NCBI GenBank assembly: GCA_030753015.1
Contig: JASMDC010000001.1
Span: forward strand, 64,001-128,000
Reading direction: 5' to 3'
From: Candidatus Undinarchaeales archaeon
GTDB lineage: Archaea > SpSt-1190 > JASMDC01
Length of the DNA stretch: 64,000 nucleotides
The position numbers were made by a program, and so were the translations under genes. How positions within the stretch are numbered: the first letter of the stretch is position 1; the number at the start of each line of letters is the position of its first letter. Shown here in pieces: positions 24,595 through 56,020 of this stretch. The notes beneath the pieces are model-generated. The model was not told the origin of the DNA. It saw only the letters and a list, made by a program, of their open reading frames with translations, and ran no database searches.

Positions 24595-25767
24595 TCAGTA
24601 CAGGAACACTTTAAGCAGCGACGGGCGACGTGCGAAGAGCCGAGCAGCTCGGGTGAAACCCTTGCCCGCGAGGAAGTCCACGACGTCCTTGGGAGTGATC
24701 TTGGTGATGAGGTAGTCGAGGTCCTCGTCGGAGAGCGAGTGGACCGCGCGTCTGGCACGAACGAGGCTATTCTGGAAGGCGCCGTACCCCTTGCTCCACC
24801 GCTCTTCGTACTCCTTGAGGGACTTCTTTGATGTGTCACCACGACCTATGGCCTTGGCAGCGGTCTCGCCGGCGAACCTCCCGGCTTCCATGGCCTCACA
24901 GATACCTCCGGCATGGATGGGATTGACCTGGCGGGCCGCATCACCGGCGACCATGATACCATCGGCCACAAAGTGACTGATCGACTCACCTACAGGGATG
25001 GTCCCAGCGTTCACCTCAAGGACACTCCCTTGGGCCAGCCCTGGTTCAGAGGCTATGAACCGCTTGAGGTAAGTGATAGAATTCTCCTCGTCAGAACCGA
25101 GGACCGTGACACCTACATTGGCAACATCATCGCCCTTCGGGAATACCCATGCATAACCGCCACCAGCGGTCCTCCGGCCGGTCCAGCAGGTGACCATGGT
25201 GGGATCGGGGATGTCGATACCTGCCATTTCGAACTGGACACCGGAGCTCAGATTCTTTGGCTGGACTGGTTCGGTAAGTCCCAGCGACCGGGCCATGGTG
25301 GCGTCCACACCGCCACAGCAGATGACGATGGCCGCCTCCTCCTCCCAAGTCCGGCCCGCGGAAGAGAGGGTGACTCGTGTAGTATCTCCGTCTCGCACCA
25401 CCGACTCTGCGCGAGTCCAGGCCTGGACATTCGCGCCATCGCGCACGGCGAGGGTGGCCAAGTATTTATCGAACAACTTCCGCTCCACAACCACACCGAC
25501 CACGTGGTCCTCCCGGGCAGATACCCTGCGGCCATTGGGCGCAACGAATGTGAGGCCATGGATGCGTTGAGCGATCCACCGCTCATCCTCGGGTACCATG
25601 TCACGCTTCAAGACCTCGAGCACCACTCCTTCGGCACACCGTTTGGGAGCGCCAATCTCCTGGCGCTGGTCCACAGCGAGCACATCAAGGCCTTCGCGGG
25701 CAGCAAATCGTGCAGCGTTCGCCCCTGCGGGGCCTACACCGATAACGATGACGTCAGGCACGTACAA
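24595..25767 (-). CDS. Digeranylgeranylglycerophospholipid (geranylgeranyl) reductase
   Basis: GVGPAG FAD motif, GAPKRCAEG, GGYAWVFPKG, GDAARQVNPIHAGGI. Confidence 0.92.
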   Translation of the reverse strand: MYVPDVIVIGVGPAGANAARFAAREGLDVLAVDQRQEIGAPKRCAEGVVLEVLKRDMVPEDERWIAQRIHGLTFVAPNGRRVSAREDHVVGVVVERKLFDKYLATLAVRDGANVQAWTRAESVVRDGDTTRVTLSSAGRTWEEEAAIVICCGGVDATMARSLGLTEPVQPKNLSSGVQFEMAGIDIPDPTMVTCWTGRRTAGGGYAWVFPKGDDVANVGVTVLGSDEENSITYLKRFIASEPGLAQGSVLEVNAGTIPVGESISHFVADGIMVAGDAARQVNPIHAGGICEAMEAGRFAGETAAKAIGRGDTSKKSLKEYEERWSKGYGAFQNSLVRARRAVHSLSDEDLDYLITKITPKDVVDFLAGKGFTRAARLFARRPSLLKVFLY

Positions 25768-44270: not shown

Positions 44271-44315
44271 GCGGGCTCTAAGCTTATTATAGGTGTGGGG
44301 AGTACCGAGGCACGC

Positions 44316-46100
44316 ATGTCGCGCTCTGTAGGGCCTTTGGTGGCCGCCCTCATCATCTTGGTACTCGCCTTCGATGTACTCTCTATCCTCTCCCTTGAAC
44401 CTCGTCTCCCACTGCCACACGACGGCGCGTTCACGATACTCGCCGTCCATGGGGACGTGAACGCAGATGGAAGAATGGACACATTCCATGTCAGATCATC
44501 ATACTCCGGAAGCGGAGAACAACCGGTCCTTTTCCAGACTCTGCAGCTCTACACCTATAATTTCACGATACGGTCGTTGGCCCTCGACAGGATCGACTGG
44601 AGGAAGCTAGAGGGCGCCAATGACACGATGTATCGGAATGGGGATGTGGTGGAACACTTCCTTCAGGTCCCGGCCAGTCATGCACTGGACGGTGCAATGA
44701 TGCTGACCGTATCCTTTGATCCCGATCCGCGTAGGGGATTCTCCAGCGTCAACGCCACCTTTCGCCTCCCCCCCTCGCTTGAGCACGGGGCCACGATCGA
44801 TATCACTCAGGCACGTCTGAAGGATATCGTGGTCCTGGAACAGGACAACTTCTCCACCAACACCGACGAGACGCGGAACACTACGTCGATGATGCAGGCG
44901 GAGGGTCTGGCGGTCCCGGTCATGCTCATGATCCTCATTGCTCTTCTCGTCCATGCAGTGCGACGGGACCGGCCTTGGCTACGCTCCCTTGGACGGAGCT
45001 GGTGGGTATCTATGGTACTCATCCTCATCGCAGCCCTCTTTCTGCGTGTGTGGTACGGGGATCTATTCCAGCGTACACAGATCGTCAATAATATGCGCAA
45101 CGTACGGTTCGCCCAGCACTTGTTAGGGGGATCGACGATCTTCTGGTCTTTCGGTTCAGGACATCCCTATATCCTGTCCATAGTGTATGCCGCTTCAGGG
45201 ACGGGTGTATCTGCCTGGGGTGCCGAAGGGACAGCCATGGCCGTGTCACTCGCCGTATCACTGGTCCACGTGCTCGCTCTCGGTCTCCTCGGTGCCGCGT
45301 TCCTCAGTCCGCGCGCAGGCCTGGCCGCAGCAGCCCTTCTTACTACTCTCCCTCTCGATCTCCTTTACGCCACGACAGTCCGGCGGGACGGGCTGGCGAG
45401 CCTCTTCATGACCGTCTCCTTATTCCTCATGGTGCGTGGCTCCCGGTCGAGCTCCCGCTCCCACCTGTATGCGGGTGCTGCTGCCATGGGGATGGCCCTG
45501 TTCACTGTTCGACCCCTCTTGGTCATCCTGGTCCCCTGGTTGGCTTTCCTCATCCTGGCGTGCGACCTTCCTCCCCGCCGGCTCAAAGGCCCGCTCGTCT
45601 TCCTGCTCCTGGCCGCGGCCCTACCCGCACTGGCCCTTATGTTCGAGGCCATGACCTATATTGACGGAACACCCATCTTGGGCGGGATGATCCTCACTCC
45701 GGAATACCTGACGGCCAATGCCGGATGGATGGTATTCTACCTGTTCGGGGGCGACCACCATGCATCGCTCATCACACTTCTGGCCATAGTGGGCGTGCTC
45801 TCCCTGAGACGTCGAGGTCCCGGGAAAGCAGCGTCGTTGGCGGCATTCCCTATCATGATGTCTCTCTTCTTCATCGTCCACCGCGTCCCCATCGCCTATT
45901 GCACCTCGCACCGCCACCTGATCTTCCTCTATCCGACCCTCCTTCTGATGTCGAGCGAGGGTGTTGCCGAGGTGTGGAAACGCTGGCGGGAGCGGTACGG
46001 GAGCGAACCATTGTTAATCTTAGCGTTGGCAGCGCTCTACATCATAGGTGTGCACGCTGGTTATCTGGATGGAGTGCTCGCTCTCAGGCGGTGCATCTGA
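44316..46100 (+). CDS. GT-C fold (ArnT/PMT-like) membrane glycosyltransferase
   Basis: Many TM segments, ALFLRVW, GLAAAALL...P, RHLIFLYP. Confidence 0.7.
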   Translation: MSRSVGPLVAALIILVLAFDVLSILSLEPRLPLPHDGAFTILAVHGDVNADGRMDTFHVRSSYSGSGEQPVLFQTLQLYTYNFTIRSLALDRIDWRKLEGANDTMYRNGDVVEHFLQVPASHALDGAMMLTVSFDPDPRRGFSSVNATFRLPPSLEHGATIDITQARLKDIVVLEQDNFSTNTDETRNTTSMMQAEGLAVPVMLMILIALLVHAVRRDRPWLRSLGRSWWVSMVLILIAALFLRVWYGDLFQRTQIVNNMRNVRFAQHLLGGSTIFWSFGSGHPYILSIVYAASGTGVSAWGAEGTAMAVSLAVSLVHVLALGLLGAAFLSPRAGLAAAALLTTLPLDLLYATTVRRDGLASLFMTVSLFLMVRGSRSSSRSHLYAGAAAMGMALFTVRPLLVILVPWLAFLILACDLPPRRLKGPLVFLLLAAALPALALMFEAMTYIDGTPILGGMILTPEYLTANAGWMVFYLFGGDHHASLITLLAIVGVLSLRRRGPGKAASLAAFPIMMSLFFIVHRVPIAYCTSHRHLIFLYPTLLLMSSEGVAEVWKRWRERYGSEPLLILALAALYIIGVHAGYLDGVLALRRCI

Positions 46101-46316: not shown

Positions 46317-46736
46317 CTACTCACCGATGACCTGGCATATGAGACTTCGACGCCTTGAGCGGGTATCGAGTTCAACGAACACGGCCTGCTGCCATGTGCC
46401 GAGAACGAGCTCACCCTTGCGGAAGGGGATGGTAAGGCTTGGTCCAAGGAACGCAGCTCTGACGTGGGAAGAGCCGTTATCGTCGTTCCATGTCATATGG
46501 TGTGCGTAGTCCGCGTTCCGTGGAGCTATTATCTCGAGAGCCCTTGGGATATCCTTGAGGAGCCCGGGTTCGTACTCGATGGTTGTGAGAGCACCTGTAG
46601 ATCCGGGGACGAACACGCATACAACGCCATTATCCAGCCCGGACGAGCGTACAATGTCGGCGACCTTGCTGCTGATATCGACGATGTGGACGGCTCCCTT
46701 GGTCTTGATAGTGAAGTCCTCCGCATGGACGGCCAT
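46317..46736 (-). CDS. yjbQ: YjbQ/UPF0047 family protein
   Basis: GSTGALTTIEYE, NGSSHVRA, LGTWQ, ELD. Confidence 0.93.
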   Translation of the reverse strand: MAVHAEDFTIKTKGAVHIVDISSKVADIVRSSGLDNGVVCVFVPGSTGALTTIEYEPGLLKDIPRALEIIAPRNADYAHHMTWNDDNGSSHVRAAFLGPSLTIPFRKGELVLGTWQQAVFVELDTRSRRRSLICQVIGE

Positions 46737-46784
46737 GTCCGGCCCGATGCGCACGGGTGTTTAAATATCGATGGGCGCCCCTAC

Positions 46785-48053
46785 CTATCCAATGGGCATG
46801 TAGTACAGCTGCCCCTCCGAGTCGCGCATGAAGTAGGCGTCGAAGGTCCCGGCGTCCACCGCAGTTGCCTTCTGTACCTCCTCGCCCTCCATGTAGAACA
46901 CGTTGAACGTCACGTTGTGCTGGAATGTGTGGAGTGCTTGCTGAAGGGAGTGGGGCGTTATAGGCTGGTAGAGGGTATTGGGCAGTCGCTCGGGTGCGTT
47001 CTCCGTGATGTAGGTCAGCATGGCCTTCGGATCCCGCTCGGCCAGATCGTCATCAAGGACATAACGGTTCTGTCCCGTGAGCTCGTTCTCATCCCTCTCA
47101 TACGTCCGCTCAAGCTCCTTCCATGAGAGAGAGCCGTCCATGCGCTGTCTTGCAAGCCCGCCCAGCTCTTTTGCTAGCGTTCCTGCATCGCGGGCGATGT
47201 CATCTATGTGGTCGGGTATATTGTCGATCCCATACGCTTTGTCGAGGCGGTTGAGCACGTGGAATCCGGCCTTCGCATATGGGCATTTGAAGCCCTCGTT
47301 CACAGTAGTAGTCCACCGCAGCAGGTCCCTTATGAGGAGCGAGCGCACGTTGGGACCAGCGCCGTCACGCTCCGCGAGCTCGAGGCCCTTGACCGTCGCG
47401 TAAGCTTCGCTCAGACCTATATCCTCATAACTACGCAGGAAGTCATTGGCCGTCGAGGCATCAAGATCCGCCACGAGGTCAGCATGACCGAGCTCGTGGT
47501 ATTTGGTTGCAGCCTTGTACTCGTCCCGGCTCATATCATCTTGATGGATCCCTGTAATCACTTCATTGACCTTCTGTACGAATTCTTGGGGCAGGTGGGT
47601 CGATTCAATGGTGTCCTGCTCCCGGTATGTGCTCATACCATGATCGATGAGAGAATCATCCTTGAGGAGGACGGTCGTCCCGTCAGGGTGGCGTTCTGTG
47701 AGCCCAGTAGTGCCCTGCCGCCCATCGCTCTCTGCTAGAGTCGCGACCTCATAGATATCGATCCCTCGGGCATCGTCGCGCTCATGACCTTTGACGTGGT
47801 ACACGCCGAGCGAACTTCCACCGACATCGAGTAGGGTGTCCCCTGAGCGGACGGAGAATGAACCAAGGTCATTATACACTTCGTCCATATGCTTCGCGAG
47901 AGTGTTCACTGCCTCCTTTGCTGACGAAGCGGACGCCACCTCATTGAGATAGTCCGGGGCGTCATCTGGTAGTGTCGCTGCTGGCGTGTCCTCGAAGTAT
48001 GACGCGATGGCGGTGCCAAGGAGCTCACGGAGCTCGCCAACATCACTACTCAA
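46785..48053 (-). CDS. Hypothetical acidic protein with HEXXH motif
   Basis: YHELGH followed by SEAYA. Start estimated at TTG 48053. Confidence 0.65.
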   Translation of the reverse strand: MSSDVGELRELLGTAIASYFEDTPAATLPDDAPDYLNEVASASSAKEAVNTLAKHMDEVYNDLGSFSVRSGDTLLDVGGSSLGVYHVKGHERDDARGIDIYEVATLAESDGRQGTTGLTERHPDGTTVLLKDDSLIDHGMSTYREQDTIESTHLPQEFVQKVNEVITGIHQDDMSRDEYKAATKYHELGHADLVADLDASTANDFLRSYEDIGLSEAYATVKGLELAERDGAGPNVRSLLIRDLLRWTTTVNEGFKCPYAKAGFHVLNRLDKAYGIDNIPDHIDDIARDAGTLAKELGGLARQRMDGSLSWKELERTYERDENELTGQNRYVLDDDLAERDPKAMLTYITENAPERLPNTLYQPITPHSLQQALHTFQHNVTFNVFYMEGEEVQKATAVDAGTFDAYFMRDSEGQLYYMPIG

Positions 48054-48143
48054 TAGTAGTAATAATACATTCCTGCAATTTAAGTATTTCGGTTTAACTC
48101 CGTGGGTGAATACATTTAAGCATGAGGCACCGCTCGCATCCCG

Positions 48144-48935
48144 ATGGTCTCCTTTCTCCCGGGAGGGCCTATAGCACTGCACGGGGGCGTCGCACTCCTC
48201 CTGATGACTGTACCAACCCTTCTTATCCTCTCGGCCATCGTACGCGAGGTCTCAAGGACCTTGTTGTGCACGGACTGCCGCCAATGTACTGCGGTATGTC
48301 CTGTCGTGACCATCGCACGGGAGCTAGATAACAAGGAGGGGGACGGTAGGGCCACATTCATCGGACCCGCTGAGGTCATGCGGTCGCTCCGTGCTGGAGA
48401 TGACAAGCGGATCATAGAGGGGGGACTTCATATCTGCTCGACATGCCGTAATTGCGTGGAACGATGCCCTCGTGGACTGGATGCAGAGGCAATGGTGCTC
48501 GCGGGAAGGAGCATCCGATTCCGAAGGGAAGGCGCTACTGATGGTCAGGTCAAGCTCCTTGAGCGGCTCGACAAGGCAAGAAATGTCCTTGGTGAGACCA
48601 AGAGCCGACCCGATCCTGCCTCGCAGGCCCGGTCCATTCTAAAGAGTGCCAAGCAGCTTGAGCGGCACCTCGAAGATAAGGAAAACGAGATATCGTCAGA
48701 AGACGGTCCGGATCAGATCCTAGATAAGAATGTGGATGGGACTGACGATACGAAAGTCATGAAGGCGGATACTGAACCTGAACGTATACCTAAGGTAAAA
48801 AAGACCGTGAAGCCGAACAAGGATTCAAAGAGCAATCGGTCAAAGAAGCTGGTGAAAACGAAGGCCTCGAAAAGATCTGCGAAGAAGGACGCCGGAGGGC
48901 GGAAGCGATCGACAGGGCCATCGGAGGGATCGTAA
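48144..48935 (+). CDS. HdrC-like 2x[4Fe-4S] protein with N-terminal TM and Lys-rich tail
   Basis: CTDCRQCTAVCP and CSTCRNCVERCPRG. TATA-like ATTTAAG about 25 nt upstream. Confidence 0.85.
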   Translation: MVSFLPGGPIALHGGVALLLMTVPTLLILSAIVREVSRTLLCTDCRQCTAVCPVVTIARELDNKEGDGRATFIGPAEVMRSLRAGDDKRIIEGGLHICSTCRNCVERCPRGLDAEAMVLAGRSIRFRREGATDGQVKLLERLDKARNVLGETKSRPDPASQARSILKSAKQLERHLEDKENEISSEDGPDQILDKNVDGTDDTKVMKADTEPERIPKVKKTVKPNKDSKSNRSKKLVKTKASKRSAKKDAGGRKRSTGPSEGS

Positions 48936-49768
48936 TGCACCGCATGGTCTTCGACGGTTGCTTATACGGACTACAGCTACTTGACACAAGATATGCGGTG
49001 CGATACCTTCTGAAGAAGCTCGGGATCGAGGTGACTGAACCCACAAGGGACATCTGCTGTGGGAGACCGTCATCGTTCATCGGCGACATGGCAGGAAAGG
49101 ACAAGCTCATCAACATCTCCGTCAGCGGCTGGGGTCGCACGCAAGGTTCTGTGGACGAGGTTCTGGTGTCATGTCCGGGTTGCGGGACTGCGCTCATGGA
49201 TTCTGCCGATGTGGCACGAAGGGGCATCGAGGTGACCCACTTCATCGAACTCCTTCCCGAGAAGATGGAGTTCCTCCGCAAGAGCGGGCTCGGAGAGGTG
49301 AACGCTCGAGTGACCGTTCATTTCCCTTGCCATCTCAGCCGGGGGATGGGTGTGGACAATGCGGTCATGGTGGATGTCCTTAACGCGATTCGTGGCCTTG
49401 AGATAATCGAAATGGAGGAGGCTGGCTCGTGCTGCGGTGGCTCGGGCGGCCTCAGAGCGAGTGATCCCGCGGTGGCTAAAGTCTTACGCTACCGCAAGAT
49501 ATGTAATGCCCTGGCAACCAAGGCCGACCTAATCGTGACAGCGTGCCCCCGATGCGAAATCTCCCTGAGCGAGGCCCTCGCGGAGGTGGCCGCCGACGAG
49601 GACGCGGATCCCGCCCTGCGCAAGACTGCTGCAAACATGAAGGTCGTATCCTTAGCCTTCCTGGTGGCATTTGGTATGGACGACTTCACAAAGAACCTAG
49701 AGCGTGTGCTTACCGAAGCCAAGGAGCGACTTGCCGCTCGGAAAGCGGCCGAGGAGGGGATGATCTGA
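48935..49768 (+). CDS. HdrB-like CCG-domain Fe-S protein
   Basis: Two CCG domains: FDGC...CCG...CPGC and HFPCH...CCGGSGG...ACPRC. TAATG overlap with the upstream gene. Confidence 0.9.
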   Translation: MHRMVFDGCLYGLQLLDTRYAVRYLLKKLGIEVTEPTRDICCGRPSSFIGDMAGKDKLINISVSGWGRTQGSVDEVLVSCPGCGTALMDSADVARRGIEVTHFIELLPEKMEFLRKSGLGEVNARVTVHFPCHLSRGMGVDNAVMVDVLNAIRGLEIIEMEEAGSCCGGSGGLRASDPAVAKVLRYRKICNALATKADLIVTACPRCEISLSEALAEVAADEDADPALRKTAANMKVVSLAFLVAFGMDDFTKNLERVLTEAKERLAARKAAEEGMI

Positions 49769-50451
49769 TCATCGGATACCTTGCGCTCGCACTGTTCCTC
49801 GCGACCATCGTTCTCTCACTGAAGGGTGTCATCCCCCAGGACCGTATCCCAATTCAGACGGCGCTGCTCGGTGTGACACTCCTCATAGTGCTCATATCCG
49901 TGATCGGTGCTCGTCAGGGACTGGCGCGCACTATCACTCCCACGGACCTCTTGGCTTCCATTCAGATCCATCCCATCACGGCTCTGATCGCTGGATTCTT
50001 GGCCGTCGGTGGGCTGGAAGCGGCTGGTGCCTTCGAGGCACTGGTGGATGCCCTCGACAGGCTCGCCTTGTTCAAGATCGGTGGGATTGAAGTATTTGGT
50101 CTTCCGGGGGTCGTGGTCCTGCTCGTCAATACACCCGCCATCCTCGCCCTCCCCTGTGGCCGTATACTTGGTGCCGCGCTGCTCCCGGCAGCCCTCTTCC
50201 TTGGACGGGCCGTGGCCGAACGACAGGACGACAATCGCTTGGTGGCGGTAGTTGTGTTCGCTTTCACGGTCAATGCCGCAGCATCATGCGCGCCCTCGCT
50301 CCTTGGAGGTCTCGGAATGATAGGTGAAGGTATGACGGGTCAGCCGTTCGGCACTTTCTCGAACCCTCTACGGGCGGGCATCATGGCTGGGACCGCCTTT
50401 ACGGCAGTGGTCCTCGGACGGCTGGCGCCCCTGAAGGTAGGAGGGCGATAA
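49765..50451 (+). CDS. Membrane protein A (LPCGRI / NAAASCAPS family)
   Basis: Hydrophobic from CTG 49765 (CTGA overlap, GAGGAGGGG SD). Paralog of 50456..51196. Confidence 0.8.
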   Translation: MIIGYLALALFLATIVLSLKGVIPQDRIPIQTALLGVTLLIVLISVIGARQGLARTITPTDLLASIQIHPITALIAGFLAVGGLEAAGAFEALVDALDRLALFKIGGIEVFGLPGVVVLLVNTPAILALPCGRILGAALLPAALFLGRAVAERQDDNRLVAVVVFAFTVNAAASCAPSLLGGLGMIGEGMTGQPFGTFSNPLRAGIMAGTAFTAVVLGRLAPLKVGGR

Positions 50452-50455
50452 GATC

Positions 50456-51196
50456 ATGGAGCTCTCCCTTCCTTTGATCGGGGCCGCCGTCTGGATCGCT
50501 GTGGCTCTCTTGGTCATTCGTTCCCGCATCGACGATAAGCACCTCAGGACCGGTTACATATGTCTGTTGGTGTTCGTGACGACGCTCGCTTACACCCAGG
50601 TGGCACCACCTCCGATACCCATACAGACCGTTCTGGTGGCACTAGCAGTGTTCATGCTGGTGGTCTCGGAGGCGACACTTGCCGAGCTCCTGGCAGGGAT
50701 CATGCTCCACCCAATCATGGCCATGACCGCAGGCTTCATGGCCGCAGGCGCGCTGGGATTCGCAGGGGGATATGATGCGATGGTCGAGATATTCGAGAGG
50801 CTCGCGATGACGACCCCTCTTGGACTTGTCGGGACGGCCGTGCTTGTGGCGAATATCCCTGCGCTCATTCCGTTGCCGTGTGGCCGGATCACCGCGGCGG
50901 CCTTCCTGCCGGGCGTTGTGAGGTTCGGTAACGAGGTGCTCGCGCCAGGTATCGCTGCCACAGGAGCTGCTGACCACGCTCCGTTCGCGACCCATGTGCT
51001 CGTGGCCGCGTTCATCGTCAACGCCGCAGCATCCTGTGCCCCCTCGCGCCTGGGTGGGATCGCTACCGTCGGCGAGGGTGAACTGGGGCTCGAACCTGGT
51101 ACCAGTGCTAGGGCCCAGCAGGCGGGCATCCTGGTTATGACCGCCGTGACTGCCCTCATAATGCTTCTCATATCCAATGGAACCCTTTCGGGGTGA
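50456..51196 (+). CDS. Membrane protein B (LPCGRI / NAAASCAPS family)
   Basis: Shares IPIQT, HPI..AGF, LPCGRI, VNAAASCAPSxLGG and GEG with protein A. Confidence 0.85.
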   Translation: MELSLPLIGAAVWIAVALLVIRSRIDDKHLRTGYICLLVFVTTLAYTQVAPPPIPIQTVLVALAVFMLVVSEATLAELLAGIMLHPIMAMTAGFMAAGALGFAGGYDAMVEIFERLAMTTPLGLVGTAVLVANIPALIPLPCGRITAAAFLPGVVRFGNEVLAPGIAATGAADHAPFATHVLVAAFIVNAAASCAPSRLGGIATVGEGELGLEPGTSARAQQAGILVMTAVTALIMLLISNGTLSG

Positions 51197-51202
51197 TACG
51201 CT

Positions 51203-51346
51203 ATGAACACGAGACTCTTGCTGACGATGGTCGGGATTGGCGCCCTCTGCGGCGCAACGTTCAACCATGCCCTGGGCTATGCGATCTACAAGCCCGGAGG
51301 CATCATGGGCGGCCTTGTGACCGGGCTGCTGATGTTCCTACTCTAG
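51203..51346 (+). CDS. 47-aa two-helix membrane peptide, absent from ORF track
   Basis: MNTRLLLTMVGIGALCGATFNHALGYAIYKPGGIMGGLVTGLLMFLL, with GGTGA SD. Fills the operon gap. Confidence 0.7.
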   Translation: MNTRLLLTMVGIGALCGATFNHALGYAIYKPGGIMGGLVTGLLMFLL

Positions 51347-51358
51347 GTGCTTCACGTC

Positions 51359-51799
51359 ATGGAACCTGTCATCATCACGGTGCTGCTGGCGGCGAGCGTG
51401 GGAGTGGCAGGTCTAATTAGAGGTCGAGCCCGACGGACCGTCGCCATGCCCGTTGACGAGGTCAGGCGTAACGTCATGGCCTCGCTGGCTCTCGCAGTCC
51501 TCCTCGGCAGCAACGCTGTGAAGGCATTGCGCACACGTCACCTGTGGACCCTCACCTGCTACGAGTGCCAGGCATGCCAGCCTGTGTGCCCTCGCGGGCT
51601 CGATCCTGCACGGTTCGTGGTCGCAGCGCGCACGAACAATCCGGACCTTCCTAGTCAAGTGGACGGTACGCATGACGTACCCGTGCGCGAAGCGGCCCGT
51701 TTGTGCGTCAGGTGTGGGCTCTGTGAGCAGGCGTGCCCCCTCCGGCTCCCCATCATGAGTGCGATCGATGATCTGAAGAACGATGGGAGGTTTGTGTGA
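51359..51799 (+). CDS. Membrane-anchored 2x[4Fe-4S] protein (second HdrC-like)
   Basis: N-terminal hydrophobic helices, LWTLTCYECQACQPVCP and CVRCGLCEQACP. Confidence 0.85.
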   Translation: MEPVIITVLLAASVGVAGLIRGRARRTVAMPVDEVRRNVMASLALAVLLGSNAVKALRTRHLWTLTCYECQACQPVCPRGLDPARFVVAARTNNPDLPSQVDGTHDVPVREAARLCVRCGLCEQACPLRLPIMSAIDDLKNDGRFV

Positions 51800-51800
51800 G

Positions 51801-52430
51801 ATGGTCGAGCGGCGCGACTTCCTGCGGAACGCTCTCGGGTACGGAGCAGCGCTGGTGGCAGCGCTCTCCCTCGCGCCACCCACGGGCAATGGTGCAGTGG
51901 TCCGTCCGCCCGGTGCCGTGGACCCGCGCCAGTTCAAACTCCTCTGTCTTAGGTGCGACCAGTGCGCTCAGGTCTGTCCGACCGAGGCCATCGAGATAAT
52001 ATCCACCGGTCCGATAGAAGAGATCGGTCTGCCACGCGTTACGGGCCAACCGGGTCCGTGCACCTTCTGCTATGAGTGCAATAAGATCTGTCCGACCCAG
52101 GTGCTCGACCTCGGGACCGTGACCGATCTCCAGCAGAGCGGTAGGCAACCGAAGCTAGGCACCGCATCCCTCGCCCATCCCGAGCGGTGTATCAGATGCG
52201 ACCGATGTGACGAGGCCTGCCCCTACATAGTCGTCGAGAACGACCTTACCGGGGAGGGAGAGCAGGTAATGCGCTACCGAAAGCTTCTGGAGCCCATCTC
52301 TGAGGGGGCGTTGCAGCGTGAGATGGCCCGCCTCGAGGATTACTGCAGGGGATGCGGCCATTGCGTGAACGCCTGTCCGACGGACGTGCTCGTTCTCAAG
52401 CCGAGTGCTCGTAAGGTGGTGCGCTCATGA
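51801..52430 (+). CDS. NapG/MauM-like polyferredoxin with twin-arginine leader
   Basis: RRDFL leader, VRPPGA, four CxxCxxCxxxCP motifs. Confidence 0.88.
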   Translation: MVERRDFLRNALGYGAALVAALSLAPPTGNGAVVRPPGAVDPRQFKLLCLRCDQCAQVCPTEAIEIISTGPIEEIGLPRVTGQPGPCTFCYECNKICPTQVLDLGTVTDLQQSGRQPKLGTASLAHPERCIRCDRCDEACPYIVVENDLTGEGEQVMRYRKLLEPISEGALQREMARLEDYCRGCGHCVNACPTDVLVLKPSARKVVRS

Positions 52431-53215
52431 GCGTCCAGACATACCGCCGGCCGGTCCAGGCGATATTCCTTATCATATCCATCATCCTTCTCGGCGGGAT
52501 CGCACGGTACTGTCCGTTCATCGGTGTTCAGCAGATTGCTGGCGCTATCGGTTCCGGTCTAATCGACGAGGCCTTTGATGCGGGAACAATCCGCGGCTTC
52601 TCTCGCCTCACTATAGTCGTGGGTGGATTCACGCTCTTCGTCATCGTGTTCGGGCGTGTGTGGTGTGGATGGATTTGCCCGTTCGGAACCATCCTGAGCG
52701 CGGCGAACGCGCTCAAGCTCCCTGTCCAGGAGCGCAGTCCTCCACGCATCCTCCAAGGGTATTCCTTCAAGTACGAGCTCTTAGCAGTCTTTATCGGCGC
52801 GACCATGATCTTCGGATACCCCGTGTTCTGCCAAGTGTGCCCGGTCGGCGCCCTCTACAGGACAGCGGGCTTCCAGACGTTCGACCTTGCCGTAATCCCC
52901 GGTTTGACCGTCGTCTTCATATCCGTGCTCTTCGTGTTAATCTATCATCGTCGGTTCTGGTGCAAGTCAATCTGTCCGCTCGGTGCGCTGACGGCTATCT
53001 TGGACAAGGTAAGCGCGTTCCGAGTCCTAGTGGACGAGGATACGTGCATCGAGTGCATGGTTTGCCAGCGCGAGTGCCCCATGGACATCCTCGTCATTGA
53101 GGATTCTATCCGCCGTGGCCATCGAACAGTGCCCACGGGGGAGTGCTTTCGCTGCGGACGGTGCATCGACGTGTGCCCCAAGGATGCCCTCTCCTTCAGC
53201 TTCAAGTACGGGTGA
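52427..53215 (+). CDS. NapH/MauN-like membrane polyferredoxin
   Basis: GRVWCGWICPFG, RFWCKSICPLGA and a C-terminal 2x[4Fe-4S] domain. Confidence 0.9.
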   Translation: MSVQTYRRPVQAIFLIISIILLGGIARYCPFIGVQQIAGAIGSGLIDEAFDAGTIRGFSRLTIVVGGFTLFVIVFGRVWCGWICPFGTILSAANALKLPVQERSPPRILQGYSFKYELLAVFIGATMIFGYPVFCQVCPVGALYRTAGFQTFDLAVIPGLTVVFISVLFVLIYHRRFWCKSICPLGALTAILDKVSAFRVLVDEDTCIECMVCQRECPMDILVIEDSIRRGHRTVPTGECFRCGRCIDVCPKDALSFSFKYG

Positions 53216-53219
53216 TATC

Positions 53220-53672
53220 ATGGTCCACATGCGTGAGCATTTCATACTGGTGATCCTGGTGATCGGGATCGTTGCCCTTGTAGTCATGGGCTCCACTCGG
53301 CTCACTCCGTCCTCTACCACATCGGTGAACGCCCGTCTTCTCAACCGGCCCAATCCTGCTGGAGAGGGGATCTATCGCACAACGCTCGAGCTCTCCTGGG
53401 AAGGAAGCCCGGTCGCCAGGCGATGTGCGATACTTGTGCTGGCGTTCGATCGGAACGACCGGGATGACGCGTGGCATGTGTCGGTCCTGAAGGACATCGA
53501 AGCCTCTCCCTATGGGCAGAACCTGTGGGCGGACATCCCTCCTGACAAACCCGAAGGGAAAGCGGTCCTCACCGCCGACCTCCTGTTCGAGAGCATAGGG
53601 GCGGGAGAGGTAGTGGAGGCGCTCCTCCTGTGCGATGGTGAGGTCGTCGCACGGGACGAGGTTCTTATCTAA
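53220..53672 (+). CDS. Small membrane-anchored or exported protein
   Basis: N-terminal hydrophobic helix, beta-rich body with two Cys, GGTGA SD. Operonic with the napH-like gene. Confidence 0.65.
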   Translation: MVHMREHFILVILVIGIVALVVMGSTRLTPSSTTSVNARLLNRPNPAGEGIYRTTLELSWEGSPVARRCAILVLAFDRNDRDDAWHVSVLKDIEASPYGQNLWADIPPDKPEGKAVLTADLLFESIGAGEVVEALLLCDGEVVARDEVLI

Positions 53673-55960
53673 GCCTTGTTCCGTCGGACAACGAAGCCCT
53701 CTATCACGAGGACGTCCACTCCACGCCGGACCAGAACCGAGAGCGCATCCCTAGGTGTGCACACGATCGGTTCACCATGGATGTTGAAGGATGTGTTGAG
53801 CACGACGGGAACTCCCGTGTGGGACTCAAGCTCGGTAAGCACCCTGTGGTAGGCAGGCTGGAGCTCCCGCCGCACCGTCTGAGGTCGGGTCGTGCCATCG
53901 ACATGGACGACGGCCGGGATCTCACCACGCTTCTCCGCGGGCACATCGTAGGCCTCGATCATGAACGGGGCCTCCCGCCCTTCCACAAGGTACTCTTCCG
54001 CCCGCTCCAAGGGGAGGCTCGGACAAAACGGTTGGTACCACTCCCTGCCCTTGAGGAGGAGGTTGATTCGGTCCTTGGTTGAAGTGTTGGAGGGATCGGC
54101 GAGCACCGAGCGGTTGCCTAGGGCGCGAGGGCCGAACTCCATGCGTCCCTCGAACCAGCCGACGATAGCACCTCCTGCAGCAAGGTCCGCGGCAGTACCC
54201 GCCATATCGTCAGTGGCATCCCACGTGATCCCCCGTGTCCCTCGGAGGGCGGTCAGCACGTCGTCCTCGGTATAGGAGGGGCCGAGGGACACGCTCTCGA
54301 AGCGATGGGACGTAGGTCTGCGTCCCTCCTCGCGACATCGGTGATGCCATACATACAGCGCAGCACCCACACACGTTCCTGCATCGCTGGCAGCAGGCTG
54401 GATGAACAGGTCCTCGACACAGTCCAGCCGACGTATGTTCATGTTGGCCAGCACATTGAGGAAAACCCCTCCCGCTGTGGCGACCTTTGCCTGCCCCGTG
54501 AGCTCGACCGCTTGGGTCGCCAGCGACGTGAGCACCTTCTCCAGTCTACGCTGGAGTGCCTTGGACACGGCGGGCCGCGTTGTGTTCTCAAGGAGCCCTC
54601 TTCGGACCGCGGCGTACACGGGGGCGTCAATGAATGTGCCTTTGTGCTTCCCAAGAGGGGGTTTCTCCACCGCACGCGCGTCGTACCAGGTCCGGAACGC
54701 CTCGATGGCCCTTTCCGCGAATCCTTCCACATCGGGTGCGTCGGCCGGGTTACCCCCTGTCCACAGAGTGCGGCAGAGGGGGGAGAACTCCACGAGCTCC
54801 CGTACATCACGCTCATCCATATCGAGCATCTCCGCGATGCTCGTCGTCGTCCGTGTCCCATCGCATAGGGAGTATACGGCGTGGTCGCGCTCGATGAGCC
54901 TGAGCGACAGGCCCCCGCTCATGGAAGCAGAGTATACTCCTTGGCGCTCGTGCAGCTCGACATTGGGTAGGAGGCAGGCCCAAATATCCTCGTCCTGTAT
55001 CCCAATGAGGGGTGCGGCCAGCTGGACGACCTCATCCACGTGTGCCGAGGGGGAGCGGCGGAGAACATACCATAGTGCTCGGAACTCCTCGTCCTCAAGC
55101 GGTTCTACCGACAAGGGATTGCCGGAGTGGGGCCGTAACCGGTACCCTTCCGTCGTCCGCTCCGGCCGCCACTTGGGTGAGGGTCGGACCACTTCCGATC
55201 CATGGAGGGTGTTACGCAGGTCCCTGGAAGGGACGGGTTTAATATCAAGGAGCCCGAGGAGGGCCTCCGCCGTTGGTTGCAGCTCAGCCTCCTTTGGAAG
55301 GGGCATGAGGGCCTCATACAGTTGTTCGATCCCATCGGGGACTTCTCCCGGGAACGAGCTCATGGCGGTGACCTTGCCCTCATCGTACCATATGGATAGC
55401 CCGAGGAGGAGCGTTGTCAATCCGTATACGAGCCCGACGGAAGAGCGCAGGGGGGAGGATGCGACGAGCTCTAAGGAACCGTCAGCCCATCGGCCAACGG
55501 CGGCCGAGCGGTCATCCCCGTACCCGTCCACCGCCAAGGCAGTGCATCCATCGAATCCCGAGCACAGAGCCGCCGAGGCCAAGTGGGCCGTCTCGTGGTC
55601 GACGGCGGCCACCTCTACAGGCGTGGAGCGCTCGCCCGCAAAGAATGTACGGATCCGGTCCACTTCCTCCTGATTGCGAAGACGAACGTTCGTGGAGAAC
55701 AATGACGCGAGCTGGGCCCGGGACCTACGGTGTGGCGGTTCGATGGGGCGTGCCCCCTCGCCTCCGTATGCGACAAGGTCGATATCATCAGGAGTGAGCC
55801 TTGCCAAGCGTAATACCTCGAAGATGGAGTCCCGGGGGAAGTGGCCGGTGTGCTTGTCCCTATTGAGCCGCTCCTCCTCCACCGCGGCCACCACCTGACC
55901 GTCGCGGACGATGCATGCCGATCGGTCATGGGCCTTGAAGGACACCCCGAGGATGTTCAC
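53669..55960 (-). CDS. Carbamoyltransferase (NodU/CmcH/TobZ family) with large internal insertion
   Basis: HDRSAC, EEERLNRDKH, HETAH, DGYGD, GGVFLN, DAG, GPRALGNRS, HVDGTTRPQ, NTSFN. Start GTG 55960 with TTTAAA about 25 nt upstream. Confidence 0.92.
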   Translation of the reverse strand: MNILGVSFKAHDRSACIVRDGQVVAAVEEERLNRDKHTGHFPRDSIFEVLRLARLTPDDIDLVAYGGEGARPIEPPHRRSRAQLASLFSTNVRLRNQEEVDRIRTFFAGERSTPVEVAAVDHETAHLASAALCSGFDGCTALAVDGYGDDRSAAVGRWADGSLELVASSPLRSSVGLVYGLTTLLLGLSIWYDEGKVTAMSSFPGEVPDGIEQLYEALMPLPKEAELQPTAEALLGLLDIKPVPSRDLRNTLHGSEVVRPSPKWRPERTTEGYRLRPHSGNPLSVEPLEDEEFRALWYVLRRSPSAHVDEVVQLAAPLIGIQDEDIWACLLPNVELHERQGVYSASMSGGLSLRLIERDHAVYSLCDGTRTTTSIAEMLDMDERDVRELVEFSPLCRTLWTGGNPADAPDVEGFAERAIEAFRTWYDARAVEKPPLGKHKGTFIDAPVYAAVRRGLLENTTRPAVSKALQRRLEKVLTSLATQAVELTGQAKVATAGGVFLNVLANMNIRRLDCVEDLFIQPAASDAGTCVGAALYVWHHRCREEGRRPTSHRFESVSLGPSYTEDDVLTALRGTRGITWDATDDMAGTAADLAAGGAIVGWFEGRMEFGPRALGNRSVLADPSNTSTKDRINLLLKGREWYQPFCPSLPLERAEEYLVEGREAPFMIEAYDVPAEKRGEIPAVVHVDGTTRPQTVRRELQPAYHRVLTELESHTGVPVVLNTSFNIHGEPIVCTPRDALSVLVRRGVDVLVIEGFVVRRNKA

Positions 55961-56020
55961 GCTGCTGGCCGTGTGCGTCAAGGTTTAAAGGGATTGGGGT
56001 GAGGTGTCCGAAGAGGGCTT

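Follow-up and report, generated by a model that had tools for sequence, protein, structure and literature searches.

The window, a 64,000-nt stretch of a contig from a Candidatus Undinarchaeales archaeon, carries at positions 48144-53672 of its forward strand nine co-oriented genes (g1-g9) that overlap or almost touch in the list of open reading frames, and the genes that flank them lie on the opposite strand. The first two genes overlap by 1 nt and g2 and g3 by 4 nt; gaps of 4, 6 and 0 nt follow between g3 and g4, g4 and g5, and g5 and g6; g6 and g7 overlap, g7 and g8 share 4 nt, and 4 nt separate g8 from g9. The ORF coordinates, together with domain searches, agree with the nine tightly coupled genes of the initial annotation. 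A candidate archaeal TATA-like element with a TTTAA core, read from the sequence, is found at 48110-48120 (+ strand), about 27 nt before the ATG of g1, and is plausible; it would suggest a leaderless or short-leader transcript. All nine genes are present in identical order in a sister genome labelled Undinarchaeota, at 81-93% amino-acid identity. Since this order is kept there, and the core of the set recurs across phyla as described below, the arrangement goes beyond chance, and g1-g9 is a single, real and conserved operon.

We compared the operon with 39 loci that carry homologues of g3 and g4 (memA and memB; together memAB). Of these, 31 are archaeal (Thermoplasmata/Methanomassiliicoccales, Halobacteriota, Altiarchaeota, Hydrothermarchaeota and the sister genome) and 8 bacterial (Planctomycetota, Coatesbacteria and other bacterial MAGs), and archaeal neighbours were counted if they shared the strand and lay no more than 5 kb away. 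Beside memAB in the archaeal loci lie HdrB-like (27/31), HdrC-like (25/31) and NapH-like (25/31) genes. Each of the 8 bacterial loci carries a dicluster gene of the HdrC/g6-like type, combined with a cytochrome b561 or FMN_bind domain; none of them has an HdrB-like gene, and the memAB family can thus do without the CCG site. The memAB core is always encoded beside membrane-anchored [4Fe-4S] dicluster proteins. The synteny search proposed with the initial annotation thus finds the gene set kept together in several archaeal and bacterial phyla without cultured members, and that lineages differ in gene order yet keep the genes together argues for selection on the linkage. It also weighs against the view that adjacency here has no functional meaning, with unrelated neighbours or with some ORFs not being genes at all, as do the overlapping starts and stops, the fusions in relatives (memA with memB, memAB with the peptide, NapH with GltD) and the recovery of the same DNA, letter for letter, in contigs from three public runs, the sequence being listed for 11 studies with 8 runs flagged as possible sources. 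Only the lack of direct interaction data speaks for that view, which synteny already brings close to refuted and which we hold to be extremely improbable.

The first gene, g1 (48144-48935, +), encodes an HdrC-like 2x[4Fe-4S] protein that is anchored in the membrane at its N-terminus, its single hydrophobic segment spanning residues 15-33, and ends in a tail of some 90 aa rich in Lys. It matches the Pfam Fer4_8 dicluster family (3.6e-10) and bears both of the CxxCxxCxxxCP motifs typical of HdrC, while on the NCBIfam HdrC model TIGR03290 it scores 31.6 bits, below the cut-off of 160. The first Cys motif is invariant in a 22-row alignment (A5), and a hydrophobic N-terminus precedes it in 23 of the 23 archaeal orthologues listed. 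The Fer4_8 match, the hydrophobic segment and the orthologues bear out the earlier description of a TM-anchored HdrC-like protein, and that of an HdrB-like protein with two CCG domains is likewise upheld for g2 (48935-49768, +), which matches PF02754 twice (7.1e-27) and has no signal sequence. In the translation of g2 both CCG motifs are complete (C9...C41C42...C80xxC83 and C132...C166C167...C204xxC207). Its top NCBIfam matches are the C-terminal half of TfrB (130.8 bits), LdhH (102), GlcF (62.6) and HdrB (60.8), every one of them below the cut-off of its model (for HdrB, 60.8 against 345), and the closest solved structure is a methanogen HdrB (9sfi_C, 1.7e-16). CCG proteins are not uniformly disulfide reductases: GlcF, GlpC, LutA and SdhE deliver electrons to quinone or work on other substrates.

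The next two genes, memA (g3, 49765-50451, +) and memB (g4, 50456-51196, +), are paralogues that appear to be the first and second halves of a split IT-superfamily-like membrane protein. The homologous start of memA is a CTG at 49765 that overlaps the stop of g2, with no ATG, GTG or TTG there; in the sister genome an ATG stands at the matching position. The halves are about 40% identical (39% by tblastn of g4 against the memA of the sister genome), and neither belongs to a Pfam or NCBIfam family, the DsbD families included. Judging from the fusion of the two into a single ORF in 22 of the 39 related loci, memA and memB evidently form one unit. Invariant columns hold H69, C131 (in PCGR) and C175 (in NAAASC) of memA (alignment A4) and H85, C142 and C194 of memB (alignment A1). 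Across the loci each half keeps two Cys, one Arg, one Asn and one Glu without exception (78/78 halves), and the His is nearly invariant (70/78). The predicted model of g4 (pLDDT 76.4) shows a helical hairpin with PCGR at its tip, and the invariant residues are predicted to lie at the hairpin tip and at a helix end. Binding of a substrate at a transporter site would explain the invariant Cys and Arg equally well as redox chemistry would.

The initial annotation had these membrane proteins as Cys-motif paralogues of no known kind; the paralogy and the motifs stand, whereas the fold is not an orphan. A subthreshold Pfam match to CitMHS occurs in 18 of the 22 fused homologues (best 4.8e-6). Among the Foldseek matches listed through rank 24, 21 of 21 are DASS, TRAP, AbgT or NhaC-type transporters (probability 0.97-1.00), for a low-confidence query model (pLDDT 62.8) and at TM scores of 0.38-0.49, and the Atlas offers a lead in the same direction. 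Sequence and models together indicate that memAB has a highly divergent IT-superfamily-like fold (CitMHS/DASS-like, elevator-type) whose two halves, memA and memB, are antiparallel. The antiparallel arrangement is read from the complementary K/R patterns of memA and memB, from extracellular-type domains (CARDB or NosD-like beta-helix) fused N-terminally to memA in some Thermoplasmata, and from the charged linkers that join the halves in fused homologues. The family is small, with 57 representatives among 1.84 billion proteins, and the same HMM search did not reach the large transporter families from it. Directly after memB, g5 (51203-51346, +) encodes a 47-aa two-helix membrane peptide with no Pfam or NCBIfam family, found by tblastn in 17 of the 31 archaeal loci; comparable hydrophobic small ORFs, often as a tandem pair, follow memB in 12 further loci, and by eye the C-terminus of the bacterial fused memAB resembles the g5 segment. 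Thus g5 is the conserved third part of the membrane module, and the core consists of memA, memB and g5.

The remaining genes encode further Fe-S proteins and one lineage-specific protein. A second HdrC-like dicluster protein (Fer4_17 and Fer4_8) is encoded by g6 (51347-51799, +), with homologues in 17 of the 31 archaeal loci. It had been annotated as a TM protein, and the dicluster holds but the plain TM reading is the less likely one: by eye, an internal Met at 51446, an alternative start, is followed by RRNVM, then a run of hydrophobic residues and AVKA, the alignment with relatives begins only near residue 40, and g6 is related to a Tat-type 210-aa protein of another locus (L026). From these features g6 is more likely exported or anchored by the twin-arginine route. 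The twin-arginine NapG/MauM-like and NapH/MauN-like pair of the earlier reading is recovered in g7 and g8, below the family cut-offs. The polyferredoxin g7 (51783-52430, +; alternative start 51801) has an RRDFL twin-arginine motif and four CxxCxxCxxxCP motifs, and scores 75.3 bits on NapG (cut-off 269) and 63.9 on MauM/NapG (cut-off 178.85). The membrane Fe-S protein g8 (52427-53215, +) has four hydrophobic segments, two CxxxCP motifs, one CxxCP and a C-terminal dicluster; it matches Fer4_5 (4.4e-17) and scores 124 bits on NapH, where the cut-offs are 213 and 234. Lastly, g9 (53220-53672, +) encodes a 150-aa protein that carries a membrane anchor at its N-terminus and falls into no Pfam or NCBIfam family; a beta-sandwich domain with the likeness of Ig-like adhesins (TM 0.53-0.64, Atlas model pLDDT 0.57) is possible, as a lead only. 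Because g7-like genes were found by tblastn in only 4 of the 31 archaeal loci, and g9 in the sister genome alone (1/31), both lie outside the conserved core.

Relatives also carry parts that this operon does not. A small 4-Cys TM protein (CxxC...SPCxxC), encoded directly upstream of memA in 27 of the 31 archaeal loci, is missing from the window's operon, and a homologue (6e-22) is encoded elsewhere in this genome directly upstream of a DsbD_2 gene (78.9 bits). Homologues of a DsbD_2 protein occur within the cluster or next to it in 8 further loci from two distant lineages; of 4 cluster-linked ORFs tested, Pfam confirmed just 2 as DsbD_2. In some Thermoplasmata a GltD-like NAD(P)H flavoprotein is fused to NapH. 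These further conserved parts (the 4-Cys TM protein, the DsbD_2/CcdA-like genes and the GltD-NapH fusion) make it doubtful that the system is self-contained, as had been proposed.

We give a probability of about 0.45 to the reading that g1-g9 make up one operon whose products form a membrane-bound, Hdr-like redox complex not described before, and we read its function as membrane thiol/disulfide or sulfur redox chemistry. The literature search found no published description of the cluster, and all the operon proteins miss the NCBIfam equivalog cut-offs; neither source maps the locus to a complex already described. The undescribed transmembrane redox system of the initial annotation therefore survives as a conserved set with no described match, and loses its self-contained character and its membrane subunits of unknown kind. 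In such a complex, g1 and g2 would sit at the cytoplasmic face, where the CCG (noncubane cluster) sites of g2 would reduce or oxidise a disulfide or persulfide, either of the invariant memAB cysteines themselves or of a small sulfur compound held at them. The NapH-like protein g8, together with g6 and g7 as twin-arginine ferredoxins, would wire this site to menaquinol and/or extracellular carriers, menaquinol being a candidate because the genome encodes MenA (128 bits, above cut-off); TatC is encoded as well. The net effect would be that thiol/disulfide chemistry moves reducing equivalents or sulfur across the membrane, a theme that the 4-Cys TM protein and the DsbD_2 linkage appear to back.

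Like the IT-superfamily transporters (CitMHS; VcINDY and LaINDY of DASS; the TRAP transporter SiaQM; AbgT), memAB would have two homologous halves in opposite orientation, each with a hairpin. Unlike them, its halves are still about 40% identical and are separate genes in this genome, its binding-site positions hold invariant Cys, and its genes are always linked to Fe-S proteins. To our knowledge all characterised members of the superfamily are solute or ion transporters, and this link is the first argument for taking memAB as a true elevator-type secondary transporter that takes up or exports a small anion (an S, Se or As oxyanion, a thiol/disulfide or an organic acid) and whose Cys and Arg merely bind it, with g1 and g2 reducing or oxidising the substrate in the cytoplasm and the NapGH-like proteins passing the electrons to or from menaquinone. 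The Arg, Asn and Glu that never vary, placed at the hairpin and at a helix end, resemble an anion or cation site. In lactate and glycolate systems a permease commonly adjoins a CCG/dicluster oxidoreductase, an arrangement that the locus resembles, and g2 matches the LdhH and GlcF models. However, the scanned cluster-adjacent ORFs include no dehydrogenase subunit of the FAD_binding_4 or LUD type, a solute site would not usually hold four strictly invariant Cys, and memAB is linked to Fe-S membrane proteins even without HdrB and is found in the company of DsbD_2 genes and the 4-Cys TM protein; we regard such a transporter as rather unlikely. The superfamily also contains Na+/H+ antiporters, and one NhaC-type model is among the listed Foldseek matches, so that memAB might instead be a module that translocates Na+ or H+, coupled mechanically or electrostatically to NapGH-like/HdrBC-like electron flow, in the manner of the antiporter-like subunits of complex I. 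The invariant Glu and Asn and the constant company of electron-transfer subunits would suit such a redox-driven pump, which nothing in the data requires and which leaves the invariant Cys, the 4-Cys TM protein and the DsbD_2 linkage without a role. Its chances seem slim.

The thiol/disulfide reading has a functional analogue in DsbD/CcdA. CcdA consists of two oppositely oriented repeats, each with an intramembrane Pro-Cys motif, and memAB would likewise have opposite repeats with a Pro-Cys motif and co-occurs with DsbD_2 genes; the analogy is functional only, as memA and memB have no sequence relationship to these proteins and differ in fold and size. A special case of the thiol/disulfide reading with a defined physiological role would place the complex in cell-envelope maintenance and not in energy metabolism, exporting reducing power as DsbD/CcdA does, or removing electrons as DsbB/VKOR does, for the cysteines or metal centres of surface proteins. 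The DsbD_2 genes in or beside the cluster, the pairing of the 4-Cys TM protein with DsbD_2 in this genome and the fusions of memA to CARDB and NosD-like beta-helix domains would fit, and the Fer4_5 proteins NosR, MauN and CcoG, kin of g8, help to mature or maintain periplasmic enzymes. The data point to no target protein, however, and six extracellular Fe-S clusters (g6 and g7) seem excessive for a housekeeping reductant path; we consider this narrower role unlikely. NosR-type systems (FMN_bind, NapH-like protein and ferredoxin) resemble the bacterial clusters, which encode FMN_bind and a dicluster protein beside memAB, but nos genes are absent and the archaeal loci lack the FMN_bind domain.

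Set against characterised complexes, the proposed redox complex would place HdrBC-like proteins in the cytoplasm, further subunits in the membrane and twin-arginine Fe-S proteins on the outer side. It has no HdrA, HdrE, NarI-type cytochrome b, NrfD-type subunit or cytochrome c, and this sets it apart from HdrABC, HdrDE and Dsr/Hmc, as initially claimed. With HdrABC (solved as 5odc and 9sfi) it shares the two complete CCG motifs of g2 and the two CxxCxxCxxxCP motifs of g1; but the locus has neither HdrA nor MvhD, g1 is membrane-anchored, and both proteins fall far below the equivalog cut-offs given above. DsrMKJOP and the related Hme, Tmc and Hmc complexes of sulfate reducers follow the same logic, with a catalytic CCG subunit in the cytoplasm, other subunits in the membrane and a ferredoxin that Tat exports to the outside. 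According to a published account (PMC10861901), the CCG protein DsrK uses quinol electrons to reduce a protein-bound Cys trisulfide, which by analogy would be a precedent for the proposed action of g2. The operon nevertheless has no NarI-type cytochrome b (DsrM), NrfD-type protein (DsrP) or cytochrome c (DsrJ), reaches only 20 bits on the DsrK model and has a membrane part made of a NapH-like and a transporter-like protein; DsrC was not found in the genome. As in the NapGH quinol dehydrogenase and MauMN, g8 has Fer4_5, CxxxCP motifs and a C-terminal dicluster and g7 a twin-arginine motif and four cluster motifs, yet both score below the family cut-offs, NapG-like genes are rare in the archaeal loci, NapH is fused to GltD in some Thermoplasmata, and the window has no NapAB.

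Other molybdopterin genes are also absent from this part of the contig, and the genome (98.9% complete) yielded no NiFe hydrogenase. The statement that the window holds no HdrA, HdrE, hydrogenase, molybdopterin or flavin subunit is correct for all but the last and nearly so for flavin, as one weak Pyr_redox_2 motif (23.7 bits) occurs at about 25660-25755, 22 kb from the operon. Elsewhere in the genome are two other two-CCG loci, each adjoining large Pyr_redox_2 frames, which are possibly conventional Hdr.

Nine plus-strand open reading frames fill the stretch from 48144 to 53672, overlapping or separated by gaps of at most 6 nt, with genes on the opposite strand at either side and a candidate TTTAA-centred promoter element about 27 nt upstream of the ATG of the first gene (g1). 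The reading frames, Pfam and NCBIfam searches and motif reading confirm the nine-gene operon and the domain calls of the initial annotation: g1 is an HdrC-like dicluster protein with a hydrophobic anchor at its N-terminus, g2 an HdrB-like protein in which both CCG motifs are complete, g6 a second HdrC-like dicluster protein, g7 a NapG/MauM-like protein in which a twin-arginine motif and four cluster motifs can be read, and g8 a NapH-like protein with Fer4_5, CxxxCP motifs and a dicluster. Pfam and NCBIfam gave no family match for g3 and g4 (the paralogous membrane proteins memA and memB, together memAB), for g5 (a 47-aa peptide) or for g9 (a 150-aa anchored protein). Previously called a plain transmembrane dicluster protein, g6 looks, when its sequence is read by eye, like a twin-arginine exported protein and not just an anchored one. 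In the window memA starts with CTG (49765-49767), in the sister genome with ATG (locus L018, about 7311), and the start codon overlaps the g2 stop identically in both (ATGA/CTGA); the CTG either is a rare start, relies on translational coupling, or is a variant of the strain or of the assembly. The tail of g1 (48640-48935) is a low-complexity stretch of about 90 residues rich in Lys, Glu and Asp that is missing from most orthologues. Most of the 23 g1 orthologues measure 174-205 aa, and four from Altiarchaeota measure 238-262 aa.

None of the operon proteins belongs to a named equivalog, all being far below the curated NCBIfam cut-offs for HdrB, HdrC, NapG, NapH, TfrB, LdhH, GlcF and DsrK. HdrB is defined by two Cx31-39CCx35-37CxxC motifs, each for one noncubane [4Fe-4S] cluster; PF02754 matches g2 in two stretches (7.1e-27), and all ten cysteines, predicted cluster sites, are present in its translation, which scores below the HdrB cut-offs (60.8 vs 345.15 bits for TIGR03288, 21.6 vs 450 for NF041780). 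An HdrA-type Pyr_redox_2 gene was found neither in the operon nor within 20 kb of it. Because HdrA is absent, g1 is anchored and the scores lie under the cut-offs, the cluster is not HdrABC. Elsewhere in the same genome, two more two-CCG genes adjoin long Pyr_redox_2 frames (C50:23957-25373 and C62:83203-86260, on two other contigs), the second with molybdopterin genes nearby, and these two loci may be conventional HdrABC-type systems. The layout of g8 is that of NapH, with four hydrophobic segments, two CxxxCP motifs and a C-terminal dicluster (Fer4_5, 4.4e-17), at scores under the NapH cut-offs (124.3 vs 213 and 123.6 vs 234 bits); g7 has NapG/MauM motifs and likewise scores under its cut-offs (75.3 vs 269 and 63.9 vs 178.85 bits). 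With these scores, and with no napAB or molybdopterin gene in the window, the cluster is not NapGH proper.

The nine proteins include no HdrDE cytochrome b family, no NarI-type cytochrome b, no NrfD-type subunit and no cytochrome c, and searches of the genome (98.9% complete) found neither DsrC nor a NiFe hydrogenase. Therefore the cluster is not HdrDE, Dsr, Hmc or Tmc, and the distinctness from HdrABC, HdrDE and Dsr/Hmc originally claimed for it is borne out by the missing HdrA, cytochrome b, NrfD-type subunit and cytochrome c. A link to Dsr was rejected, DsrC not having been found and the genome's single NIR_SIR-type frame lying elsewhere. In outline the cluster resembles the Dsr/Hme class, in which membrane subunits lie between a CCG subunit on the inner side and a ferredoxin on the outer; it differs from that class by its new membrane partner. 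A hydroxy-acid reading (LutABC/GlcDEF/LdhH) was ruled out for want of a catalytic subunit, there being no LUD-domain or FAD_binding_4 subunit among the nine proteins or the scanned accessory proteins of relatives. The reported absence of HdrA, HdrE, hydrogenase, molybdopterin and flavin partners from the window mostly stands, this part of the contig having no molybdopterin gene, and needs amending for one weak dinucleotide-binding motif 22 kb away. The cluster is apparently undescribed: our literature search, whose reach did not extend to gene tables in supplements, found no paper on it, and the passages on NapH in PMC9012536, PMC4543118 and PMC4683180 concern other NapH contexts.

To follow the gene set across genomes, we used a pattern scan with one genome per species, which gave 39 loci with a memB relative (31 archaeal, 8 bacterial), and counted components on the same strand within 5 kb of the mem gene in the archaeal loci. 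HdrB-like genes occur in 27/31 of these, HdrC-like and NapH-like genes in 25/31 each, g6-like genes in 17/31, NapG-like genes in 4/31 and the lineage-specific g9 in one (1/31). Two of the four archaeal loci without an HdrB-like gene end at a contig edge. The remaining two, L033 and L037 in Hydrothermarchaeota, are second loci in which a single mem gene is followed by a NapH-like gene, with memA, HdrBC and the peptide missing; this mem protein might act as a homodimer or be a surplus half. The 47-aa peptide has a tblastn match in 17 loci, and similar hydrophobic small ORFs, often in tandem pairs, are present in 12 more. Gene order differs between lineages, being mem-peptide-g6-two small Fe-S proteins-NapH-HdrC-HdrB in Altiarchaeota and HdrC-HdrB-mem-...-NapH in Thermoplasmata and in the window's genome, and the linkage has therefore been retained through rearrangement. 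In the bacterial loci (Planctomycetota, Coatesbacteria and bacterial MAGs), HdrB and NapH are missing from all eight, and in all eight an HdrC/g6-like dicluster gene adjoins the mem gene, either joined to a cytochrome b561 or followed by FMN_bind and a dicluster protein. A membrane-proximal [4Fe-4S] dicluster domain is the one type of partner that every version of the cluster has, and in archaea a CCG protein nearly always accompanies it. The synteny check that had been proposed across archaea and bacteria came out in favour of a conserved cluster, with mem genes kept beside Fe-S genes in at least five archaeal and two bacterial lineages.

The membrane proteins themselves are paralogs (39% identity between memB of the window and memA of the sister genome by tblastn), and they are fused as one ORF in 22 of the 39 loci; in the bacterial fused proteins, a C-terminal segment resembles the 47-aa peptide by eye. 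Three independent leads make it likely, not proven, that memAB falls within the IT (ion transporter) superfamily, whose members are elevator-type carriers. The first comes from protein-language features, which indicate CitMHS/Na_sulph_symp clusters (score 0.90, a lead only). CitMHS appears below threshold in 18 of the 22 fused homologues (best E 4.8e-6; best shown 25.6 bits against a cut-off of 31.9), the halves in the window having no Pfam match at E <= 0.01. Finally, a Foldseek search with a fused Altiarchaeales model returned DASS, TRAP, AbgT or NhaC-type transporters in 21/21 among the matches listed (through rank 24), with probabilities of 0.97-1.00, a best E of 4.9e-4 and TM values of 0.38-0.49 among those matches. 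We stop at likely because that fused model is weak (pLDDT 62.8). The model of the memB half alone gave nothing at E <= 0.001, with Pho90 and LaINDY as weak rows only, and the memB alignment profile gave 0 matches to PDB sequences at E <= 10. That half model (pLDDT 76.4) contains a confident helix-loop-helix with PCGR at its tip and NAAASC ending the next helix, and in DASS carriers such a helix-loop-helix tip together with a helix end forms the binding site.

The lysine and arginine patterns of memA and memB are complementary at equivalent loops, memA in several Thermoplasmata carries a signal anchor followed by a large N-terminal extracellular-type domain (CARDB or beta-helix), and the linkers of the fused forms are long and charged. 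Together these features fit two halves inserted in opposite orientations, as in inverted-repeat transporters. The CARDB fusions occur in loci L029, L031 and L032, and the beta-helix/NosD-like one in L019. If the fold is correct, memA and memB provide a rare example in which an elevator-type fold exists as two halves that are still visibly alike and face opposite ways. The family is tiny, an HMM search of 1.84 billion representatives collecting 57 proteins and no member of the large transporter families at E <= 0.001, and 46/46 word-index matches are unnamed or "hypothetical". Both cysteines, the PCGR arginine, the NAAASC asparagine and one glutamate are invariant in 78/78 halves, and the histidine of HP is kept in 70/78. 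Neither protein matches DsbD_TM or DsbD_2, and the likeness of memAB to DsbD/CcdA is one of proposed mode of action only. The transporter leads bring with them the main rival to a redox reading, namely that memAB would simply carry an anion, with g1 and g2 acting on this substrate afterwards. In that event the invariant cysteines would only bind substrate, and the cluster would represent a new transporter family together with a new Hdr-type reaction. An ion pump is a further possible reading of memAB.

Relatives of the operon carry further parts. Directly upstream of memA in 27/31 archaeal loci, and missing from the window operon, is a membrane protein that combines a single TM helix with a small domain bearing CxxC...SPCxxC and measures about 115-125 aa (the 4-Cys TM protein). 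Its homologue in the window's genome (6e-22) lies on another contig (C26; L058:9823-10814), directly upstream of and overlapping a gene for DsbD_2, a CcdA-like family (78.9 bits). The pair sits behind a winged-helix regulator gene, and this genome may thus encode a related, additional membrane module of the thiol-disulfide type. Homologues of an Altiarchaeales DsbD_2 protein were found by tblastn in 8 further loci, after HdrB in Altiarchaeota and before the mem gene in Planctomycetota; of four such ORFs checked with Pfam, two were confirmed as DsbD_2. We asked separately whether g9 could be a displaced 4-Cys TM protein, which hhalign rules out (probability 0.4%), or a free form of the extracellular memA domains of Thermoplasmata, for which blastp gave no match better than E = 2. 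One Methanomassiliicoccales chromosome encodes a NapH-like protein fused to GltD-like Fer4_20 and Pyr_redox_2 domains, and the GltD-like module is contiguous with NapH in four more loci (tblastn); through this module, electrons from NAD(P)H can enter those systems on the cytoplasmic side. The fusion is a 748-aa protein (L026:9032-11278), the arrangement occurring also in L024, L027, L028 and L044, and we met no description of a NapH-GltD architecture. Small Tat-type Fe-S proteins also occur in relatives: Thermoplasmata have three of them before HdrC, and Altiarchaeota have two after g6. Their position is filled in the window by g6 and the four-cluster g7.

For the 39 loci, every ORF of 70 aa or more was also clustered, and some of the recurrent, unexplained clusters were scanned against Pfam. 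The matches were CBS, response regulator/GGDEF, NikR (one locus), DUF357 and one further dicluster protein; the sulfur-carrier neighbours TusA, DsrE, rhodanese and thioredoxin were not recognised among the clusters scanned. The NikR nickel-responsive regulator gene stands directly after a Planctomycetota cluster (L050:10540-10959, one locus), and a lipoate-protein ligase gene follows DsbD_2 at the end of the Altiarchaeales cluster in two loci only (L030:13383-14444 and L038). Of the initial interpretation, then, a conserved and apparently undescribed cluster stands. The term "self-contained" does not, since relatives carry the 4-Cys TM, DsbD_2 and GltD-NapH additions, and nor do membrane paralogs of unknown kind, the CitMHS and Foldseek leads marking them as transporter-like.

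How might such a cluster work? The first two proteins would be cytoplasmic, because g2 is without a signal sequence and Lys/Arg residues follow the g1 anchor. The clusters of g8 would also face the cytoplasm, as do those of E. coli NapH, and g6 and g7 would be exported; TatC is present in the genome. Menaquinone is probably made, since MenA lies over its cut-off, and no haem-copper oxidase was found in this genome. The known chemistry of CCG proteins is disulfide reduction in one-electron steps. The CCG protein DsrK is described as reducing a protein-bound trisulfide (PMC10861901). On sequence grounds we favour thiol/disulfide or persulfide chemistry, with the memAB cysteines themselves or a sulfur compound held by them as the reactant, because CCG chemistry, the four invariant cysteines, the 4-Cys TM protein and the linkage to DsbD_2 would all agree with it. 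NapH and the ferredoxins on the outside would connect this reaction electrically to menaquinol or to carriers outside the cell. A role in envelope maintenance, also possible, would be a special case of this favoured chemistry. A predicted complex of memA, memB and the 47-aa peptide with g1 residues 1-135 scored 0.11 against a mark of 0.32 with controls absent, and counts neither way.

Membrane complexes with a CCG subunit of the HdrB, HdrD or DsrK type are central to methanogenesis and sulfur respiration, and to our knowledge every one described uses a cytochrome b or an NrfD-type membrane partner. In this cluster its place is taken by a rare transporter-like protein whose cysteines are invariant and which is found beside Fe-S proteins in at least five archaeal and two bacterial lineages, all uncultured. 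If those cysteines are redox-active, they would provide a new route for reducing equivalents or sulfur across the membrane. We class the cluster with the membrane CCG redox complexes, and that it is something stranger is a real possibility. One such scheme, which we regard as unlikely, is that memAB is not a solute transporter and that its own invariant cysteines (as dithiol/disulfide, persulfide or bound cluster) are the cargo, moved by an elevator motion between an outer face served by NapH with g6/g7 and the CCG site that g2 offers in the cytoplasm. Were this true, memAB would be a protein that itself carries two electrons and two protons across the membrane, a transporter fold would be standing in for a quinone loop or for DsbD, and the still-split, antiparallel pair of about 40% identity would show how inverted-repeat transporters arise.

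The genome itself is archaeal, 3.85 Mb and about 60% GC, and a same-genus sister genome (public label Candidatus Undinarchaeota) has all nine genes in the same order at 81-93% identity. Same-class genomes compared were merely 0.6-1.2 Mb, and this genome is either an unusually large member of the class or doubtfully placed. Identical DNA is present in contigs of three public marine runs, with holders spanning 11 studies and 8 runs flagged as possible sources; the organism is thus not a one-off assembly product, its DNA being present in contigs of many marine runs. In metatranscriptome run X20, two short contigs are identical to the window (48515-48673 and 51270-51445), where DNA carry-over is possible and the uncovered parts are uninformative. 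The genes around the operon encode a PMT_2-like membrane glycosyltransferase (44295-46100, plus strand), a UPF0047 protein (46317-46754, minus strand), a 465-aa protein of no family (46785-48182, minus strand) and, downstream, a carbamoyltransferase (53669-55981, minus strand), the 3' end of which overlaps the g9 stop by 4 nt.
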